DNA from: Candidatus Thiovulum imperiosus
GTDB taxonomy: Bacteria; Campylobacterota; Campylobacteria; Campylobacterales; Thiovulaceae
Assembly: GCA_024281175.1 (NCBI GenBank)
Contig: JAMJTW010000014.1
Coordinates: 131,675-195,674, forward strand
Reading direction: 5' to 3'
DNA length: 64,000 bases
The notes beneath the pieces are model-generated. The model searched no databases, was not told the origin of the DNA, and worked only from the letters and a program-made list of their open reading frames with translations. This document shows positions 1,054 to 63,790 of the stretch, piece after piece; the stretch's first letter is position 1; each line of letters opens with the position of its first letter. The position numbers were made by a program, and so were the translations under genes.

Positions 1054-2664
1054 CTACTTCAATCCTAAAACTCTGTTCATGAATTGGAGAGGGGTTTCGT
1101 TTTCATAGCGGGGATACCAACCACTGTTATAAGAACTTTCCAGTTTTGAAAGCGAATTTATCGAACTTGGAAGTGTCGTTAGTTGGTTGTCCCACAAAGT
1201 CAAATCTTTCAAATTGGAGAGATTCCCAATGGAGTTTGGAAGTGTCGTTAGTTGGTTCCAACTCAAATCCAAAGTTTGCAAATTCTTGAGATTCCCAATG
1301 GAGTTTGGAAGTGTTGTTAGTTTGTTGTTAAACAAATATAAATTTTGCAAATTCGGAATCTGAGCCAAGATTTTAAAAACGGAATCAAAATCTAAATTTG
1401 GATTACTTCCTAAAGACAAAGATTGCAAATTGGTGAGATTTCCAATGGAGTTTGGAATTTCTTTTAGTTTGTTTCTAAACAAATCCAATTCTTGCAAATT
1501 GGTGAGATTTCCAATTGAGTTTGGAAGTGAAGTTAGTTCGTTACAACACAAATCCAATTCTTGCAAATTGGTGAGATTTCCAATTGAGTTTGGAATTTCT
1601 TTTAGTTTGTTTCCCCTAAAACTCAAAAATTGTAAATTTGTGAGATTCCCAATGGAGTTTGGAATTTCTTTTAGTTTGTTTCCATACAAATTCAACTTTT
1701 GCAAATTGGAGAGCTTCCCAATTGAGTTTGGAAGATAAGTAATTTCTTTGTTAAAACCATATATCGTTGTAACCGTTGTAACTTTCAAAAGTTCCTTTTT
1801 CCCTCTTGGAAGACCCAATTCAAATTCATCGCTCCATTTTTCTATTTCCAAATGCCATAAATCTAACTTCTCATCAACTTCTCCAAAATATCTATCTTTC
1901 CGAACCTCATCGACCCAAAGTTTTCCATCTTTTTCAGAAATATAGAAATCCATACTTTTTGTATTCTCTTCAAAGTTTCTAGCCTCTTTTCTCGGAACAG
2001 AAATTTGAAAAGAGATTCCAGTTCGGTTTTCAAAAACAGTGAAAATCTCTTTATCAGCATCATATTTCATTTCAAAATCCTGTTTTCCAAGCATAGAGTT
2101 TAGAACACCATTGTAAGTTTCAACTCTTCTTTTCTGAAAATCATCACTCGATTCATATTTTCCTTTTGAAATTGGGGGAATTCCACTTTTTGAAATTGCA
2201 TTTTGAAAACTGCTCTCTTTTGAAAGTTCTGGAAATTTGAAATCTTTTCCGTTCCAGATATAAGATTTCTCACTTATATTTAAGTTTTGAACCTCATCAT
2301 CAATTTTCTCTTTAACAATTGTAACTTTAGCTTTAAGAGTGTATATCCCATCTTTCCAAGAGTGGTCTAAAACTTCAAGTTTCATAAAGTGTTCAGATTT
2401 CGCGATGAGGTCTTTTTGGAGAGATTTGCTAACTTTTCCATTTTGAAACTTCACTCTCTCTTCGTAATAGCTTGATATAAAAGTTCCTGCCTCTTCAGAA
2501 ACAATTCGCTTTAGCTTCCGTTCCGCCTCTTTTCGAGCTTTGCTTTCGCTCTCCTTTTCACCAGCCCGATATGTAACCTCTTTGATATAGACTCCAGATT
2601 TTTCTGGCTTTGGCTTCACATCTCCACACCCTACAAAAAGTAGTAAAACTAAAAGATACCTCAT
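1054..2664 (-). CDS. Lipoprotein with a C-terminal leucine-rich-repeat (LRR) domain
   Basis: Lipobox LLFVGC at the N-terminus. About nine 23-aa repeats of the form LPNSIGNLTNLQELDLxxNKLKEIPNSIGNL. The middle region (FQISVPRKEARNFEENTKSMDFYISEKDGKLWV) is homologous to the 4600-5061 product. Confidence 0.8.
   Translation of the reverse strand: MRYLLVLLLFVGCGDVKPKPEKSGVYIKEVTYRAGEKESESKARKEAERKLKRIVSEEAGTFISSYYEERVKFQNGKVSKSLQKDLIAKSEHFMKLEVLDHSWKDGIYTLKAKVTIVKEKIDDEVQNLNISEKSYIWNGKDFKFPELSKESSFQNAISKSGIPPISKGKYESSDDFQKRRVETYNGVLNSMLGKQDFEMKYDADKEIFTVFENRTGISFQISVPRKEARNFEENTKSMDFYISEKDGKLWVDEVRKDRYFGEVDEKLDLWHLEIEKWSDEFELGLPRGKKELLKVTTVTTIYGFNKEITYLPNSIGKLSNLQKLNLYGNKLKEIPNSIGNLTNLQFLSFRGNKLKEIPNSIGNLTNLQELDLCCNELTSLPNSIGNLTNLQELDLFRNKLKEIPNSIGNLTNLQSLSLGSNPNLDFDSVFKILAQIPNLQNLYLFNNKLTTLPNSIGNLKNLQTLDLSWNQLTTLPNSIGNLSNLKDLTLWDNQLTTLPSSINSLSKLESSYNSGWYPRYENETPLQFMNRVLGLK
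1120..1765. repeat. Tandem 69-bp coding repeats (LRR units) inside the lipoprotein gene
   Basis: Near-identical strings such as caaattggtgagatttccaattgagtttggaa recur at about 1432, 1495 and 1564, with related units on both sides. Confidence 0.8.
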
Positions 2665-58927: not shown

Positions 58928-59239
58928 TTACTTATCCATTGAGCGAACTTCAACGTCCACTTCTGGAGCTAAATCGAGTTTCATAAGTGAGTCTACTGTT
59001 TCTGGAGTAGCGGATACTATATCAACCATTCGAGCGTGGCTTCGGATTTCGAACTGCTCTCGGGAGTCTTTATTTACATGCGGAGACTTTAAAACAGTAT
59101 ATTTTCTTATCTTCGTTGGGAGAAGAATTGGACCTCTGATAGAGGCACCTGTTCGTTTAACTGCCTCAACTATGGCGGCGACTGACCTATCTAAAATTCG
59201 ATGGTCGTAAGCCTTCAACTTTAATCTTATTTTTTCCAT
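58928..59239 (-). CDS. rpsJ: 30S ribosomal protein S10
   Basis: Start at [17 protein letters not shown] (59239). The track ORF has a 16-codon upstream extension. Confidence 0.95.
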
Positions 59240-59394
59240 AGAGACTTTTACCTTAAAAAGAACTCGTTGGTAGTATTTAAACTCCAACAGAAATTTGGCT
59301 GGAATTGTAGTAGAAAAGGAGATTTAATGCAAATATTACTAGATAGTTTATCCTTTTAAAAAGGATAAAATCAAGAAATAGTTTTCAAATTTAA

Positions 59395-61296
59395 ATGAGG
59401 TTGTACATGAATTTAAGAACAGTTTTAAAAATTCCAGAAGAGTTAGCTTCAGAAGAGGTTTATGGAGTTGGGATAGGAACTTTTATAGAGGAGAAAGAGA
59501 ACTATTTCTCAACTCATAAAAGTAATTTCTCTTTAGAAGAGATAGAACAATTTACAAATTTGAGAGAATTGGAAATTTGGAGTGATGAAATTCCAGATTC
59601 TCTTTTCAATTTAAAAAAATTAGAGAGATTAGCTATTGGGAATAGAGTAGTTTCAGAAAATATTGGGAAATTGCAAACTCTTATAGATTTAGAGCTTGGA
59701 TATGTCGAAACAGTTTCAGCGGAAATTGGAAAGTTGGTAAATTTGAAATATCTCTACTTATGGGGTTTTGAAAAAAGTAGCTTTCAAGAAATTCCAAAAG
59801 AGATAGGAAAACTAAAAAATTTGGAAGTTTTAAGTTTAGATGGTTCATTTAAGGAGTTTCCAAAAGAGATAGGAAAACTAAGAAATTTAGAAGAGTTAGA
59901 AATTTCTGGAAATTTGAAAAGAGTAGAGATAGAGAAACTTTCAAAATTGAGAAAGCTGGAAATTGTTGAAGTAGAAGAGTTTCCTAGAGAGATAGGAAAT
60001 TTGAAAGAGTTAGAAGAGTTACGAATTTATGGAAGATTTGAGAAAGTTCCAAAGGAGATAGAGAAACTTTCCAAATTAAGAAAGTTGGATATTTCTGGAA
60101 ATTTTAGAGAGTTTCCAAAAGAGATAGAAAATCTAAGAAATTTAGAAGAGTTAGAAATTTCTGGAAACTTTGAAACTGTTTTAGGAATTCAAAATATCTT
60201 GAAATTTGGAGTTCATTTTAAAAGAGAGATAACAGAAATTACAATTTCAGATTTTGAGAATTTAAGAGAACTTGTTGTTGGTGATGAGGTGGAATTTGTA
60301 AAACTTTCCAATTTGCCAAATTTGAAACAGCTCTATCTTGAAAGTGATTTTGAAATCTCAGAAGATAGTTCTAAAAATCTGGAAATACTATACTTAAGAT
60401 ATTTTGCAAAAGAGTTTGATTTATCACATTTCCCAAACTTGCAAAAATTGGATTTAGATACTCCTACTCTTTCTAAAATTTCTGGAAAAACAGATTTGAA
60501 ATCTCTGAAAATTCAACATGGTGGTTCTATCACTTTACCAAAAATAGATAGTTTAGAAGAGTTGTATCTTTATGATACAAAAGTGGATTTTGAATTTCCA
60601 AAAAGATTGAAAGTATTGAGTTTATGTAGAAACATAGATGAGTTTCCACATTTTGATTTAGAAGAGTTATATCTTGAAGGTCTCTTTTCTAAAGAACTTC
60701 CAGATTGGATAGAAAATCAGAAAAAACTTCGAGTTTTAGATATTCAATGGTCAAGTTTAGAAAAAGTTTCTGAAGCTATAACAGATTTTGAAAATTTGGA
60801 AAAATTAAATCTTTTCAAAAACCATATTGAGTTTTTTCCAAAAGGAATTGGAAAATTAAAAAATTTAAAAGAGTTCTTTTTTGAAGAGGAGAAGATTAGT
60901 TTTAATGAATATAACAGAATTAGAAAAGCACTGCCAAATACAGAAATTCCAGATAAAGAGATTGAGGTTTTTGTTTATGGAACTTTGAAAAAAGGTTTCT
61001 ATTATCAGATTTTAAAAGATGCACAATTTCTTGGAAAGGCAACAACTGAAGAGAGCTATCCAATGATTTCAGAAAATGGAACTTTTCCTTACCTCATCGA
61101 CAAAGAGGGGTGTGGAAAGAAAATAGCAGGTGAACTCTATCGTATAGATAAAGATATTTTAAAAGAGTTAGATTTTGTAGAAGGATATCCAAAATACTAC
61201 TACCGAAAAGATATAAAAGTCCGAGTTCATGATGAACCTAAAGCGTATTGGAGATACGCAATCACCTATTTTAAAATAGACTATTTTAGGATTTAA
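59395..61296 (+). CDS. Cytoplasmic leucine-rich-repeat protein fused to a C-terminal gamma-glutamylcyclotransferase-like (GGCT/AIG2) domain
   Basis: No signal peptide. Many LRR units (FPKEIGKLRNLEELEISGN...). C-terminal VFVYGTLKKGFYY...IAGELYRID...LDFVEGYPKYYYR (YGTLK.G and GE.Y motifs). Alternative start ATG 59407. Confidence 0.8.
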   Translation: MRLYMNLRTVLKIPEELASEEVYGVGIGTFIEEKENYFSTHKSNFSLEEIEQFTNLRELEIWSDEIPDSLFNLKKLERLAIGNRVVSENIGKLQTLIDLELGYVETVSAEIGKLVNLKYLYLWGFEKSSFQEIPKEIGKLKNLEVLSLDGSFKEFPKEIGKLRNLEELEISGNLKRVEIEKLSKLRKLEIVEVEEFPREIGNLKELEELRIYGRFEKVPKEIEKLSKLRKLDISGNFREFPKEIENLRNLEELEISGNFETVLGIQNILKFGVHFKREITEITISDFENLRELVVGDEVEFVKLSNLPNLKQLYLESDFEISEDSSKNLEILYLRYFAKEFDLSHFPNLQKLDLDTPTLSKISGKTDLKSLKIQHGGSITLPKIDSLEELYLYDTKVDFEFPKRLKVLSLCRNIDEFPHFDLEELYLEGLFSKELPDWIENQKKLRVLDIQWSSLEKVSEAITDFENLEKLNLFKNHIEFFPKGIGKLKNLKEFFFEEEKISFNEYNRIRKALPNTEIPDKEIEVFVYGTLKKGFYYQILKDAQFLGKATTEESYPMISENGTFPYLIDKEGCGKKIAGELYRIDKDILKELDFVEGYPKYYYRKDIKVRVHDEPKAYWRYAITYFKIDYFRI

Positions 61297-61334: not shown

Positions 61335-62396
61335 TTGCTAGTTCATAAGATGTTGAACTCACAACCAAGTTTATGCTGTACTGTTACAGATGGAAAAGTG
61401 AGTTCCACAAATCAGAAGTTTAGAAGTTTTTTTGAGATAGAAGAGAATGAAATTCTCAGAAAAAAACTTGAATTACGAGATTTTGTTTCTACATTTAAAG
61501 AAGAGTGGATTGATGCAAGAATAAAATATCCAGATACTCCTTATAAAGTAGAACTCTATAAAAATGGAAAGAACTACATCTTTGATACTTATCTCTCCTT
61601 AAGCTACTATGACACTTCATACATTTATGTAGTAACAATGTTAGATGTTTCAGAAATTGAAGAGTTGAAAAAGAGAGAATTGGCTCAAGCAAAAACTATA
61701 TCCATTGGAGAACTATCGATGGGACTGACTCATGAAGTAAATACGCCTCTAACATATATTAAGGGAAATATTGACCTCATCGAAATGGATATCTCATTTT
61801 TAGAGGATAAAAAACTTGTAGAGACTTTACAAGAGAATATAGATGCTGTTCGAGATGGTGTTGATAGAATAAATTCAATTGTAGAACTTTTAAAAGAGTA
61901 CTCTTCAAACAGTCTTGATTTGAATAGTAACTGCAATATTTATGAAGCGATAATCAATGGATATAAACTAATTTCTGGAACTGCTCAATACATCTCTCCA
62001 ATTTACTTAAATGGTGAGAGACTTTCTATGAACTACAAATCAAAAGAGACTCTTTTCAAATGCATTGAGAAGAGAAAGTTAGAACAGGTTATTCTTATAC
62101 TTTTTCAAAACTCTCTTGATGAATTGAAGAACTCATCTATACCGTACAATAAAAGGTATATAGAAGTTACTATTGAAAATTATAAAGATGGAAAAACTTT
62201 GATAGAGGTAAAAGATAATGGTGGTGGTATTGAAGAGAAGTTGCTTCCAAAAATCTTTGAACCATTTGTTAGTGGAAAGCCTCAATCTGGAATGGGACTT
62301 GGACTAAATATTGCAAAAAAGATAATTAATGAACATGCGGGAGAAATTTATGCTGAAAATTTTGAAGCTGGAGCTTCGGTAAAGATACTGTTTTGA
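61335..62396 (+). CDS. Cytoplasmic sensor histidine kinase (PAS-like N-terminus, HisKA, HATPase)
   Basis: H-box GLTHEVNTPLTYI. VKDNGGGIEE. GMGLGLNIAKKII. Possible ATG start at 61350. Confidence 0.8.
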   Translation: MLVHKMLNSQPSLCCTVTDGKVSSTNQKFRSFFEIEENEILRKKLELRDFVSTFKEEWIDARIKYPDTPYKVELYKNGKNYIFDTYLSLSYYDTSYIYVVTMLDVSEIEELKKRELAQAKTISIGELSMGLTHEVNTPLTYIKGNIDLIEMDISFLEDKKLVETLQENIDAVRDGVDRINSIVELLKEYSSNSLDLNSNCNIYEAIINGYKLISGTAQYISPIYLNGERLSMNYKSKETLFKCIEKRKLEQVILILFQNSLDELKNSSIPYNKRYIEVTIENYKDGKTLIEVKDNGGGIEEKLLPKIFEPFVSGKPQSGMGLGLNIAKKIINEHAGEIYAENFEAGASVKILF

Positions 62397-63790
62397 TAGA
62401 TGTTTTAGATATAAAAGATTTTTATCTCTCAATAGGAGAGAAAGAGATATTGAAAAATATCTCAATTTCATTAAGAGATGGTGAAATTTTTGCATTTATT
62501 GGAGAGAGTGGCTCTGGAAAATCTCTGTTGGCTCACTCTATTTTAAAACTGCTACCAAGAAATTCTGATTTCAAAGGTGAAATTATCTTTGAAGAGAGAA
62601 ATATTCTCTGGCTCTCCAAACCAGAACTTAGAGATATTCGAGGTGATAGAATTTCTTATATTTTTCAAGAACCGATGCAGAGCTTAAATCCACTACACAA
62701 AGTTGGAAAACAGATTGAAGAGATGATTGAAAATCACCAACTAATTTTTAAAAAAGATATGAAAATAGCTTTAAAAGAGTTGATGAAAAAAGTATCTCTA
62801 CCAATAGAATTACTCTCAAAATATCCACACCAACTATCTGGAGGAGAGAGACAGAGAGTTCTAATTGCAATTGCAATTGCAAATTCTCCAAATATTTTAA
62901 TTGCAGATGAACCAACAACTGCTCTTGATAAAGAGTTGCAAAAAGATATTTTAGAACTTATAAAATTCCTAGATAGAACAACTATTCTGATTTCTCACAA
63001 TTTAGAAGCTGTAAAAGATATTGCTGATAGAGTCGCAATTTTTAAAGATGGCGAAATTTTAGAGATTGGTAAAACAGAAGATATCTTCTCCTCTCCAAAA
63101 AGTGAATACACAAAACAGTTGCTCTATCTACCAGATTGGAAAGAGCCAACTCCAGCTTTGGGAAATAGAGATATTTTAAAAATAGAGAATTTAAATATTG
63201 AGTATGATAGTGGAGTAAAGATAGAAGATATCTCTTTCTCTCTAAAAGTTGGTGAGTCAATTGGAATTATTGGACGAAGTGGTTCTGGAAAGTCATCAAT
63301 TGCAAAAGCAATTGTTGGTCTTGTAAAATCTGAAGGAGAGATAAAAAACTACTCTTTCCAATCAATTCAGATGATTTTTCAAGACCCTTATGGTAGCCTA
63401 AATCCAAAAATGAGCATTTTTGAAATTATAGTTGAAGGGCTTAAAATTCATTTTCCAGATAAAGATAATTTTAAATCACAAGTTCACAACATTGCTGAAA
63501 GAGTCCACCTTCCTTATGAACTTCTCTACAAATATCCTCATCAACTCTCTGGAGGTGAAAGACAGCGAGTCTCTATTGCAAGAGCATTAATTTTAAAACC
63601 GAAAATTCTAATTTTAGATGAACCAACTTCAGCATTAGATAGAAGAATTGAAATTGAGATAGTAGAACTTCTTTTAGAACTTCAAAGAGAGTTAAAACTC
63701 TCCTACATTTTTATTTCACACGATTTGGAAATTTTAAAACCTCTTGTTCACAAAATTATCAAAATTGAGAATGGCAAAATAGTTGATTAA
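62393..63790 (+). CDS. ABC transporter ATP-binding protein with duplicated ATPase domains (peptide/opine-type, YejF-like)
   Basis: Two Walker A (GESGSGKS, GRSGSGKS), two signatures (LSGGERQR twice), two Walker B (ADEPTTALD, LDEPTSALD). The TTG start overlaps the kinase stop. Confidence 0.85.
   Translation: MIDVLDIKDFYLSIGEKEILKNISISLRDGEIFAFIGESGSGKSLLAHSILKLLPRNSDFKGEIIFEERNILWLSKPELRDIRGDRISYIFQEPMQSLNPLHKVGKQIEEMIENHQLIFKKDMKIALKELMKKVSLPIELLSKYPHQLSGGERQRVLIAIAIANSPNILIADEPTTALDKELQKDILELIKFLDRTTILISHNLEAVKDIADRVAIFKDGEILEIGKTEDIFSSPKSEYTKQLLYLPDWKEPTPALGNRDILKIENLNIEYDSGVKIEDISFSLKVGESIGIIGRSGSGKSSIAKAIVGLVKSEGEIKNYSFQSIQMIFQDPYGSLNPKMSIFEIIVEGLKIHFPDKDNFKSQVHNIAERVHLPYELLYKYPHQLSGGERQRVSIARALILKPKILILDEPTSALDRRIEIEIVELLLELQRELKLSYIFISHDLEILKPLVHKIIKIENGKIVD

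Follow-up and report, generated by a model that had tools for sequence, protein, structure and literature searches.

A predicted gamma-glutamylamine cyclotransferase domain fused to a variable LRR array in Candidatus Thiovulum imperiosus

Proteins of the GGACT/AIG2-like type are widespread, and to our knowledge most of their bacterial members lack a known physiological substrate. The known GGACT proteins, among them human and mouse GGACT (A2LD1; PDB entries 3JUB, 3JUC, 3JUD, 1VKB and 2KL2) and the YtfP/AIG2-like members of PF06094, are small standalone proteins of 115–160 aa acting on free small molecules. The protein described here shares with them the YGTL motif, the counterparts of Glu82 (E596) and Tyr88 (Y602), and the expected chemistry; unlike them, it carries its GGACT domain fused, via a cap, to an LRR array of ~500 residues. 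The most similar GGACT domains of other multidomain proteins are found in GATase(class II)-GGACT and tandem GGACT/AIG2_2 proteins. In those cases, however, the partner is enzymatic or a second cyclotransferase and the proteins are widespread, whereas here the partner is a repeat scaffold and the fusion belongs to one lineage.

For the LRR part, the best structural matches were SHOC2, known from the SHOC2-MRAS-PP1C holophosphatase, and the Leptospira proteins LIC11098, LIC12759 and LIC10831 (Foldseek, 1e-13 to 3e-15). The LRR of SHOC2 brings a catalytic subunit into place on the substrate, and this is the logic that we propose for the LRR-GGACT protein as well; yet SHOC2 is eukaryotic and binds its enzyme non-covalently, while in our case the two are covalently fused. 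Most of the Leptospira LRR proteins are exported, and none has an enzyme attached, in contrast to the cytoplasmic, enzyme-bearing LRR-GGACT. An LRR followed by a C-terminal enzyme is the typical layout of LRR effectors, and LRR-GGACT resembles IpaH/SspH LRR-NEL, XopL and XopAC/AvrAC in combining N-terminal LRR targeting with a C-terminal catalytic module. The case of RipAY illustrates that gamma-glutamyl cyclotransfer is usable as a weapon, although RipAY is a glutathione-degrading, ChaC-type enzyme without an LRR. Unlike the secreted LRR effectors, LRR-GGACT has neither a secretion signal nor a detected secretion machine, and its host is free-living. Finally, Avs, bNACHT and CapRel unite a variable sensor and an effector in one chain, as the lineage-specific and rapidly diversifying LRR-GGACT may do; compared with CapRel and the NLR-like/STAND proteins (Avs, bNACHT), it lacks an NTPase switch, a known defence effector, a PADLOC match and a defence island.

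The window, i.e., the whole stretch of DNA analysed here, is 64,000 nt long, and the longest ORF of the gene occupies positions 59395–61296 on the forward strand as one unbroken frame of 633 aa. The initial annotation had begun the gene at 59395. We prefer the ATG at 59407, since GAGG lies 7 nt upstream of it, gene callers predict a product of 629 aa from it and the paralogs align from that Met; thus, the likely true extent of the gene is 59407–61296 (+; 629 aa plus stop). Residue numbers are counted from 59395 throughout. From the N- to the C-terminus, the protein is composed of ~26–28 LRR turns, a helical cap and a GGACT/AIG2-like domain. It contains no hydrophobic segment (the maximum 19-residue Kyte-Doolittle mean is 0.76) and therefore neither a signal peptide nor a TM helix; judging from its sequence, it is a cytoplasmic, soluble protein. 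The absence of a signal peptide had already been recognized by the initial annotation, which had also described the neighbourhood correctly: the S10 operon is transcribed divergently from the gene, and a soluble histidine kinase gene comes next downstream, before a gene for a double-ATPase ABC protein.

The wider flanks of the locus include the S10 ribosomal operon, the kinase, the ABC ATPase, a flagellar rod protein and an MCP, and the same context is found in two strains. A common operon function with the kinase and ABC genes finds no support: in a same-genus genome (G001), the kinase and the ABC protein (54% and 63% identity, respectively) are still paired, with neither the S10 operon nor LRR-GGACT adjoining them. 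Scans for promoters and terminators returned counts equal to the shuffle expectation and were uninformative. An artefactual fusion of two genes, the weak point that the initial annotation had named, is ruled out: the gene is one frame, 4 independent contigs carry a 92%-identical allele with the same surroundings, and other loci hold diverged versions of the fusion. Recurring on independent contigs, the fusion is thus real.

The LRR solenoid spans residues ~37–498 (59503–60888, +) and comprises ~26–28 turns, as delimited by Pfam, AF2, Foldseek and the repeat register. Pfam profiles cover residues ~45–500 (LRR_14, 6.8e-39; LRR_4, 1.1e-25; and LRR_8), in agreement with the roughly 500 aa of irregular LRRs reported initially. 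The AF2 model of this part has a pLDDT of 65–96 over residues 50–515 (~90 over most of 100–500) and consists of ~26 strand-turn units, and Foldseek retrieved Leptospira LIC11098 (4u08, 2.9e-15), SHOC2 and plant peptide receptors, so that both features of LRR proteins, profile matches and a curved parallel-beta solenoid, are found here. Turns at the N- and C-terminal ends are regular, with 20–23 aa and a helix, and those in the middle (residues ~258–420) are short, irregular and mostly strand. A regular block of 22-aa repeats occupies residues 142–257 (59818–60165, +), with a period of 66 nt. Two ~60-bp segments that had been called near-identical at first sight indeed are so, as 57 of 59 positions agree between the copies at 59854–59912 (+) and 60109–60167 (+). 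The solenoid is closed by the C-terminal cap EKISFNEYNRIRKALPNTEI (residues 499–518; 60889–60948, +), delimited from the alignment and the AF2 secondary structure, with a helix at 503–512. This cap is almost invariant in all paralogs and is of the 'E..RI..LLP..EI' type, which we take to be typical of Leptospira-type bacterial LRR proteins. A spacer of just six residues, PDKEIE (residues 519–524), separates the cap from the region matched by the Pfam GGACT profile.

The GGACT/AIG2-like domain, a predicted gamma-glutamyl(amine) cyclotransferase, occupies residues 525–623 (60967–61263, +). Here, PF06094 (GGACT) matches with E = 1.2e-19 and 71.5 bits against a cut-off of 22.8, phmmer against the PDB finds human GGACT (3JUB, 1.3e-10 over ~90 residues) and mouse 1VKB/2KL2, and PHROG 2520, 'gamma-glutamyl cyclotransferase', scores 9e-20; among other Pfam families, AIG2_2 reaches just 15 bits and ChaC does not match. 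Thus, the profile searches suggested by the initial annotation returned both the GGACT and the LRR families, and its call of a C-terminal GGCT/AIG2 domain with a YGTLK motif (residues 528–532) holds. Such similarity points to a GGCT-type beta-barrel fold. Nine residues have been described in the catalytic site of GGACT, including Ile50, Tyr88, Tyr115 and Tyr143 (PMC2954230). Seven of them could be mapped onto the window protein, six being identical: Y528-G529-T530-L531 (60976–60987, +), the predicted substrate-carboxylate-binding motif corresponding to Tyr7–Leu10; E596 (codon GAA, 61180–61182, +), the predicted catalytic Glu; and Y602 (61198–61200, +), the counterpart of Tyr88. At the Ile50 position, there is F564 in the window protein and Tyr in its paralogs; Tyr115 and Tyr143 fall beyond the sequence-alignable region. 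E596, within 'FVEGYP', aligns with human Glu82, the residue altered in the E82Q entry 3JUD. A catalytic Glu had been predicted in the initial annotation and is present, but not in the 'GE.Y' motif where it was placed: the Glu of GELY (579–582) is the counterpart of Glu66 of human GGACT. With the residues for catalysis kept, the domain is apparently active. The structure prediction proposed at the outset succeeded for the LRR part but not for residues 519–633, where the AF2 model, built on an alignment of 6 sequences, has a pLDDT < 50 and gives neither a reliable fold nor a reliable orientation towards the LRR face.

As to the substrate, a search of the genome confined to two glutathione-pathway families, GshA (PF04262) and GGT (PF01019), found neither the GshA-type glutamate-cysteine ligase nor GGT. 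Since these two are absent and the closest solved relative is GGACT rather than GGCT/ChaC, the substrate is likely not glutathione but a gamma-glutamyl-amine, such as gamma-glutamyl-lysine, a polyamine or a gamma-glutamylated protein. Likewise, the glutathione-degrading ChaC/GGCT type does not describe this domain, whose best Pfam family is GGACT. The genome encodes RimK-like ATP-grasp ligases, and no ligase is linked to LRR-GGACT at any of its loci.

LRR-GGACT is a new architecture assembled from known parts. The fusion is very rare: it forms 6 clusters among 5.8 billion, all from Thiovulum-like bacteria, and an exhaustive protein search returned 2 of 1.84e9 representatives below 1e-30, both of the LRR-GGACT family. 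None of the 60 relatives, the same-genus genome included, has it. Searching genome contigs, those of this genome excepted, with a profile of the family alignment recovered generic LRR proteins only, none of which carries a GGACT domain according to tblastn; the profile had picked LRR peptide patterns and was thus uninformative for the fusion. The survey of domain architectures called for initially confines LRR-GGACT to free-living Thiovulum-like bacteria, and the impression that no bacterial example had been described is borne out by the literature searches and the exhaustive protein search.

Three LRR-GGACT paralogs are present in this genome, the window gene being one of them. Between paralogs, the cap and the GGACT domain are 54–72% identical, the LRR is conserved much less and the number of repeats differs. 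The predicted catalytic Glu is conserved in P0003, P0004, P0122 and P0123 and is lost only in P0124, whose first GGACT domain is degenerate (VVNSLKK for VYGTLKK, catalytic Glu deleted) and whose second domain is intact. At the other loci, which lie beyond the window, an orphan protein of ~440 aa (p438) comes after the GGACT domain, and this pairing occurs at four loci with different flanking genes. AF2 models p438 as all-helical with a mean pLDDT of 52; its family numbers only 5 clusters among 5.8e9, and no match was found in 400 other Campylobacterota genomes or, by tblastn, in phages. The window copy is solo, lying without a p438 partner amid housekeeping genes.

The same pattern of a constant enzyme and a variable LRR holds between paralogs and between strains. 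Two near-identical strains differ at 127 positions over 12.6 kb, and 103 of these differences sit in the first 1.3 kb of the LRR. The resulting divergence island (59358–60633; ~109 differences in 1.28 kb, with the rest of the 12.6 kb almost identical) extends from the promoter region to the inside of the LRR array. Its most variable segment is the 22-aa repeat block, with 13.3% nucleotide divergence in 59807–60106 and a 2-codon indel. The first ~400 codons of the gene hold ~97 substitutions, while in ~220 codons from about residue 410 onwards (the last LRR turns, the cap and GGACT) there are no amino-acid changes at all, cap and GGACT domain being 100% identical; the flanking genes are identical too. 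The dN/dS between the strains is 0.2–0.4, which marks the gene as functional rather than decaying. Positive selection on the concave face was not seen, either in this ratio or in the share of changes falling in beta strands (35%, against 36% expected). Gene conversion from paralogs or repeats was rejected as the source of the island, with only 4 of the 109 variant-centred 17-mers found elsewhere in the genome, all of low complexity, at 17-mer resolution. DGR-type mutagenesis of the LRR is unlikely, as the changes are scattered across 1.3 kb and affect synonymous positions as well.

Such evidence induces us to propose that a variable LRR module directs or gates a gamma-glutamyl-amine cyclotransferase that itself stays constant; we give this model roughly even chances. 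The solenoid of ~500 residues would serve as a protein- or peptide-binding surface, joined rigidly to the constant GGACT domain by the cap and the six-residue spacer. Binding of a macromolecular partner by the LRR might then present the substrate to the enzyme or gate the enzyme itself. In the reaction expected of this family, the free alpha-amino group of an L-gamma-glutamyl moiety would attack its own gamma-amide, yielding an amine and 5-oxoproline. The window copy may work by itself or make use of p438 supplied in trans.

The biological role of such a protein is most plausibly one of variable recognition or of conflict, not of core metabolism, and a role in conflict or defence is plausible. 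The initial annotation had likened the protein to sensor-effector immune proteins. As an anti-phage system acting by abortive infection, LRR-GGACT would be a single-chain sensor-effector, in which recognition of a phage protein by the LRR frees the GGACT domain to destroy an essential gamma-glutamyl metabolite or modification, with p438 as a regulator or antitoxin elsewhere. An island of LRR divergence within an otherwise identical background, its variants not accounted for by intragenomic conversion, would suit such a function, as would the turnover of the family, which we deduce from its several copies, its restriction to one lineage, a domain that is dead and a partner gene that is split. 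The family is also absent from the same-genus genome, other cytoplasmic LRR fusions, e.g., caspase-LRR, are encoded in this genome, and GGACT genes are carried by phages. However, the protein matched none of the PADLOC-DB 2.0 families at E ≤ 0.1 (the neighbouring ABC ATPase had generic ATPase matches only), Pfam detected no P-loop NTPase (NACHT, NB-ARC, STAND) in the 633 residues, and neither an oligomerisation domain nor a known effector domain was found. The association with defence islands raised initially did not materialize, there being neither a defence island nor a mobile element at the window locus. Moreover, dN/dS is below 1 without enrichment of changes on the concave face, the p438 family was found neither in phages nor in the other Campylobacterota, and we know of no defence system with a gamma-glutamyl cyclotransferase effector. 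Indirect signs, i.e., the divergence island, lineage restriction and paralog turnover, thus favour a conflict role, but a PADLOC match, an NTPase and a defence island are all lacking, and an anti-phage function strikes us as rather doubtful. With the same reserve, we would tentatively suggest that LRR-GGACT, together with p438 at the sister loci, might form a new innate-immune or toxin-like module, in which a hypervariable LRR directly controls a cyclotransferase effector.

The housekeeping neighbourhood, with synteny kept in two strains, and the purifying selection on the gene might also fit a regulatory 'eraser' whose LRR docks on one cellular protein while GGACT strips a gamma-glutamyl group from that protein or from a bound metabolite, as part of the physiology of a large fast-swimming sulfur bacterium. 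SHOC2-type scaffolds place an enzyme on its substrate in a similar way, and the RimK-like ligases are possible glutamyl 'writers'. Yet none of these ligases is linked to any locus, the family is missing from all 60 relatives including the same-genus genome, the three paralogs are diverging, one of them with a dead domain, and an LRR divergence island is unexpected for a fixed housekeeping interaction, all of which makes this role unlikely. That very dead domain in P0124 raises the question of whether GGACT might be a non-catalytic binding or structural module and the protein an LRR adaptor; GGCT folds as non-enzymatic modules are reported in a preprint (bioRxiv 10.1101/2025.01.15.633182). The window protein, however, retains YGTL, E596 and Y602, its domain is 100% identical in the two strains and shows the highest conservation of all parts when paralogs are compared, and even P0124 has an intact second domain, so we judge a pseudo-enzyme very unlikely. 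By analogy with LRR-enzyme type III effectors, which have the same layout, and with RipAY, one could also think of an exported effector against eukaryotic grazers or neighbouring cells. The best NCBIfam matches of the LRR part are indeed XopAE, XopL and XopAC, but their 80–114 bits against cut-offs of 450–600 (114 vs. 600 bits) indicate generic LRRs only. In addition, the protein has no signal peptide, the genome encodes neither T6SS TssC nor T4SS VirB4 (the search covering these two machines), the family is found only in free-living Thiovulum-like bacteria and the enzyme domain is of the GGACT type, not ChaC; we consider export highly improbable.

Overall, the joining of GGACT to a large scaffold for protein binding implies either that its target is a macromolecule or that a macromolecule controls its chemistry. 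It points to protein-linked gamma-glutamyl-amine bonds in bacteria, or to the ligand-gated destruction of a gamma-glutamyl metabolite. The sharp, LRR-confined divergence island in otherwise identical strains matches what is seen at recognition loci. As the family is tiny and belongs to a single uncultured lineage, its generality is limited. If a housekeeping role proves true, LRR-GGACT would bring to light a gamma-glutamyl modification cycle so far unrecognized in giant sulfur bacteria. If a part in defence or self/non-self recognition is demonstrated, bacteria would have in this module a minimal equivalent of the LRR immune receptors that does without an NTPase switch, and bacterial immunity would gain an effector chemistry new to it as well as an LRR receptor of very simple design.

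The uninterrupted open reading frame at window positions 59395-61296 (forward strand, 633 aa) was recovered just as the initial annotation had delimited it, but its likely start is the second methionine (ATG 59407, 629 aa), which is chosen by the gene callers, shared by all paralogs and preceded by GAGG 7 nt upstream. Residue numbers used here are counted from 59395. Residues ~45-500 match the Pfam models LRR_14 (6.8e-39), LRR_4 (1.1e-25) and LRR_8 (2e-13), and residues 525-623 match the GGACT/AIG2-like family PF06094 (E=1.2e-19; score 71.5 bits, cut-off 22.8), confirming the proposed LRR array with a C-terminal GGACT/AIG2-like domain. As had also been claimed, a signal peptide is missing: no hydrophobic stretch was found (maximum 19-residue hydropathy 0.76), and the protein is therefore predicted to be soluble and cytoplasmic. 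The two near-identical DNA segments of ~60 bp reported in the LRR part are real as well (59854-59912 and 60109-60167, 57/59 identical), and both sit in a stretch of regular repeats, each 22 aa (66 nt) long. From an alignment of six sequences, AF2 modelled a confident solenoid of ~26-28 strand-turn units (pLDDT 65-96 across residues 50-515) with a helix at residues 503-512; the closest Foldseek neighbours of the solenoid were Leptospira LRR proteins (4u08, 2.9e-15), SHOC2 and plant peptide-hormone receptors. A six-residue spacer holds the GGACT domain at the C-terminal end of the LRR surface, and this domain was modelled unreliably from the same 6-sequence alignment (pLDDT<50).

By sequence, the enzyme domain comes closest, among solved structures, to human GGACT (3JUB/3JUC, E=1.3e-10) and mouse A2LD1 (1VKB/2KL2); PH0828 and E. 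coli YtfP rank next. The catalytic site of GGACT is composed of Tyr7, Gly8, Thr9, Leu10, Ile50, Glu82, Tyr88, Tyr115 and Tyr143 (PMC2954230). Tyr7-Leu10, Ile50, Glu82 and Tyr88 map in the sequence alignment to Y528, G529, T530, L531, F564, E596 and Y602 of the window protein, while Tyr115 and Tyr143 fall past the alignable region. Only 'DDFES' vs 'DDFQS' distinguishes 3JUB from 3JUD, the entry for the E82Q mutant, and the Glu changed in that mutant aligns with E596 in 'FVEGYP'; E596 is thus the predicted catalytic Glu. A catalytic Glu is therefore present as anticipated, but it is not the one of the 'GE.Y' motif, which corresponds to Glu66 of GGACT. Given these mapped residues, the domain looks catalytically competent.

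Only six LRR+GGACT clusters, the window protein (P0002) included, were found by a word-indexed search of 5.8e9 clusters (the others being P0003, P0004, P0122, P0123 and P0124), and no account of the fusion was found in the literature, in line with the initial annotation, which was not aware of a bacterial example; nor is the fusion mentioned in the paper on the Thiovulum genome. An exhaustive phmmer search of 1.84e9 representatives with the cap and GGACT part returned 6392 matches, only two of them below 1e-30, both from the LRR-GGACT family itself. The next best (1e-24) were standalone or tandem GGACT proteins, and none of the longer matches carried LRRs, being GATase-GGACT proteins, tandem GGACT/AIG2_2 proteins and one with an unannotated N-terminus. 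The host genome (2.2 Mb, 33% GC) encodes a ribosomal protein L2, located in the window, that clusters with Thiovulum sp. ES at >=90% identity. Among 60 relatives, one same-genus genome included, the fusion occurs only in the window's genome, and the standalone GGACTs elsewhere in the order are proteins of 117-136 aa with 44-50% identity. LRR-GGACT is a new, very rare architecture made of two known domains. Standalone GGACT-like proteins also occur in phages, in 94 genomes of which most are from podophages of Pseudomonas aeruginosa (Bruynoghevirus; e.g., NC_019813.1:30836-31117); they are 33-38% identical to the window domain and correspond to PHROG 2520, annotated as moron/AMG.

The genome holds five GGACT domains, one of them in the window gene. 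On contig C5, P0124 (707 aa, LRR followed by a degenerate and an intact GGACT domain; L006:8001-10124) stands in tandem with P0123 (503 aa), and contig C9 carries a distant standalone copy. In the first domain of P0124, VVNSLKK replaces VYGTLKK and the catalytic Glu position is deleted. The domain tree separated three groups: type A, the LRR-attached domain of the window gene included; type B, with the intact second domain of P0124 and the standalone copy of locus L097 (support 100/99); and the distant standalone copies of C9 and of loci L001 and L008.

At the C5 locus (L006/L007), a divergent caspase-Lcl_C lipoprotein gene lies upstream of P0124 and P0123, which are followed by p438, an unannotated 438-aa protein, and a 230-aa protein. 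L008 has a divergent standalone GGACT upstream, then P0122 and a 450-aa protein 63% identical to p438. L001 likewise begins with a divergent standalone GGACT, followed by P0004, an Lcl_C (DUF1566) gene and a p438 homolog broken into ORFs of 291 and 153 aa (L001:6206-7564) by a frameshift, as a pseudogene or through a sequencing error. Finally, at L097:7084-8542, and likewise at L098-L100, a standalone type-B GGACT of 140 aa is directly followed by a p438-family protein of 336 aa, with grpE-dnaK close behind; these loci represent a minimal pair devoid of any LRR. Such pairing across the compared loci identifies the GGACT domain plus a p438-family protein as the recurrent unit, and the window gene is the only copy with no p438-family protein nearby. 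p438 has no match in Pfam or PHROG, its family comprises only 5 clusters among 5.8e9, and it was not found in 400 other genomes of the phylum or, by tblastn, in phages. Its AF2 model is all-helical, with low confidence.

Conservation between paralogs is highest in the final LRR turns, the cap 'EKISF(D/N)EYNRI(R/K)(R/K)ALPNTEI' and the GGACT domain, and the central LRRs vary in number and sequence. The comparison with the 92%-identical allele of a near-identical strain (L002) followed the same line. The 847 codons compared in S10, L3, L4 and the kinase show no difference, while the first ~400 codons of LRR-GGACT carry ~43 synonymous and 54 non-synonymous changes and a 2-codon indel (dS 0.15-0.32, dN/dS 0.2-0.4). 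Past residue ~410 there are no amino-acid changes and few synonymous differences, and alignment codons 500-631, covering the cap and enzyme, are identical. In 300-nt bins, 103 of the 127 differences over 12.6 kb sit in 59207-60706, with a maximum of 13.3% at 59807-60106; the island extends over 59358-60633. Only 4 of the 109 variant-centred 17-mers of the L002 allele occur elsewhere in the genome, so gene conversion with paralogs or sister repeats of this genome as donors was rejected. Nor were the amino-acid changes enriched on the beta strands of the LRR. We read the island as a divergent allele of the recognition module, probably imported or maintained for a long time and subject to purifying selection, and not as a product of positive selection driven by point mutations. 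A smaller patch inside the ABC ATPase gene (62507-63406, forward strand; 17 differences in 900 nt, almost all synonymous), in a region otherwise identical between the strains, suggests mosaic recombination tracts along the chromosome.

The genome also encodes at least five exported LRR proteins: a 536-aa lipoprotein of the window (1054-2664, reverse strand, C14:132728-134338; lipobox LLLFVGC) and proteins of 838 aa (C10), 960 aa (C26), 356 aa (C28) and 452 aa (C1), all but that of C26 sharing the tail 'ETP(L/I)QF(M/L)(N/K)RVLG'. Two further candidate cytoplasmic fusions were recognised by eye: a Peptidase_C14-type, caspase-like N-terminus with LRRs and the same cap 'ISSLLPNTEI' (578 aa; C8:5320-7056, reverse strand), and LRRs with a C-terminal HTH-like segment (346 aa; C28:88288-89328, reverse strand).

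BtrG and ChaC share the gamma-glutamyl cyclotransferase chemistry. In the account of Oakley et al. 2010 cited by PMC2954230, the alpha-amine of the gamma-glutamyl group has to be free, and the attached amine is released together with 5-oxoproline. We would give about even chances to LRR-GGACT being an LRR-guided or LRR-gated gamma-glutamyl-amine cyclotransferase, in which the LRR part would bind a protein and thereby either switch the enzyme or bring a gamma-glutamylated amine to its active site. Endogenous glutathione is an unlikely substrate, since neither a GshA-type ligase nor GGT is encoded in the genome, and the GSH-synthetase model matches only two RimK-like ATP-grasp proteins (C20:8770-9666, reverse strand; C5:3382-4527, forward strand). 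The latter are possible glutamyl ligases ('writers'), and their genes are linked to no GGACT locus.

It is rather improbable that LRR-GGACT is an immune receptor whose LRRs directly drive a cyclotransferase effector: the protein has no PADLOC match and no NTPase domain in Pfam, and its neighbourhood consists of housekeeping genes, which also speaks against an association with defence islands, a point that the initial annotation had proposed to test. The soluble histidine kinase (HisKA+HATPase_c, weak PAS match, no TM segment) and ABC ATPase described downstream are indeed there (61335-63790, forward strand), the kinase stop codon overlapping the TTG start of the ABC gene, whose double-ATPase product has no membrane domain. 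However, the same-genus genome keeps this pair, at identities of 54% and 63%, in another place that adjoins neither the S10 operon nor any LRR-GGACT, and a conserved functional link was therefore rejected. An exported effector is likewise unlikely, given the missing signal peptide, the lack of TssC and VirB4 in the genome and NCBIfam effector matches far below cut-offs. Returning to the guided or gated cyclotransferase, the lineage restriction, paralog turnover, orphan partner and LRR divergence island point towards a role in variable recognition or conflict.
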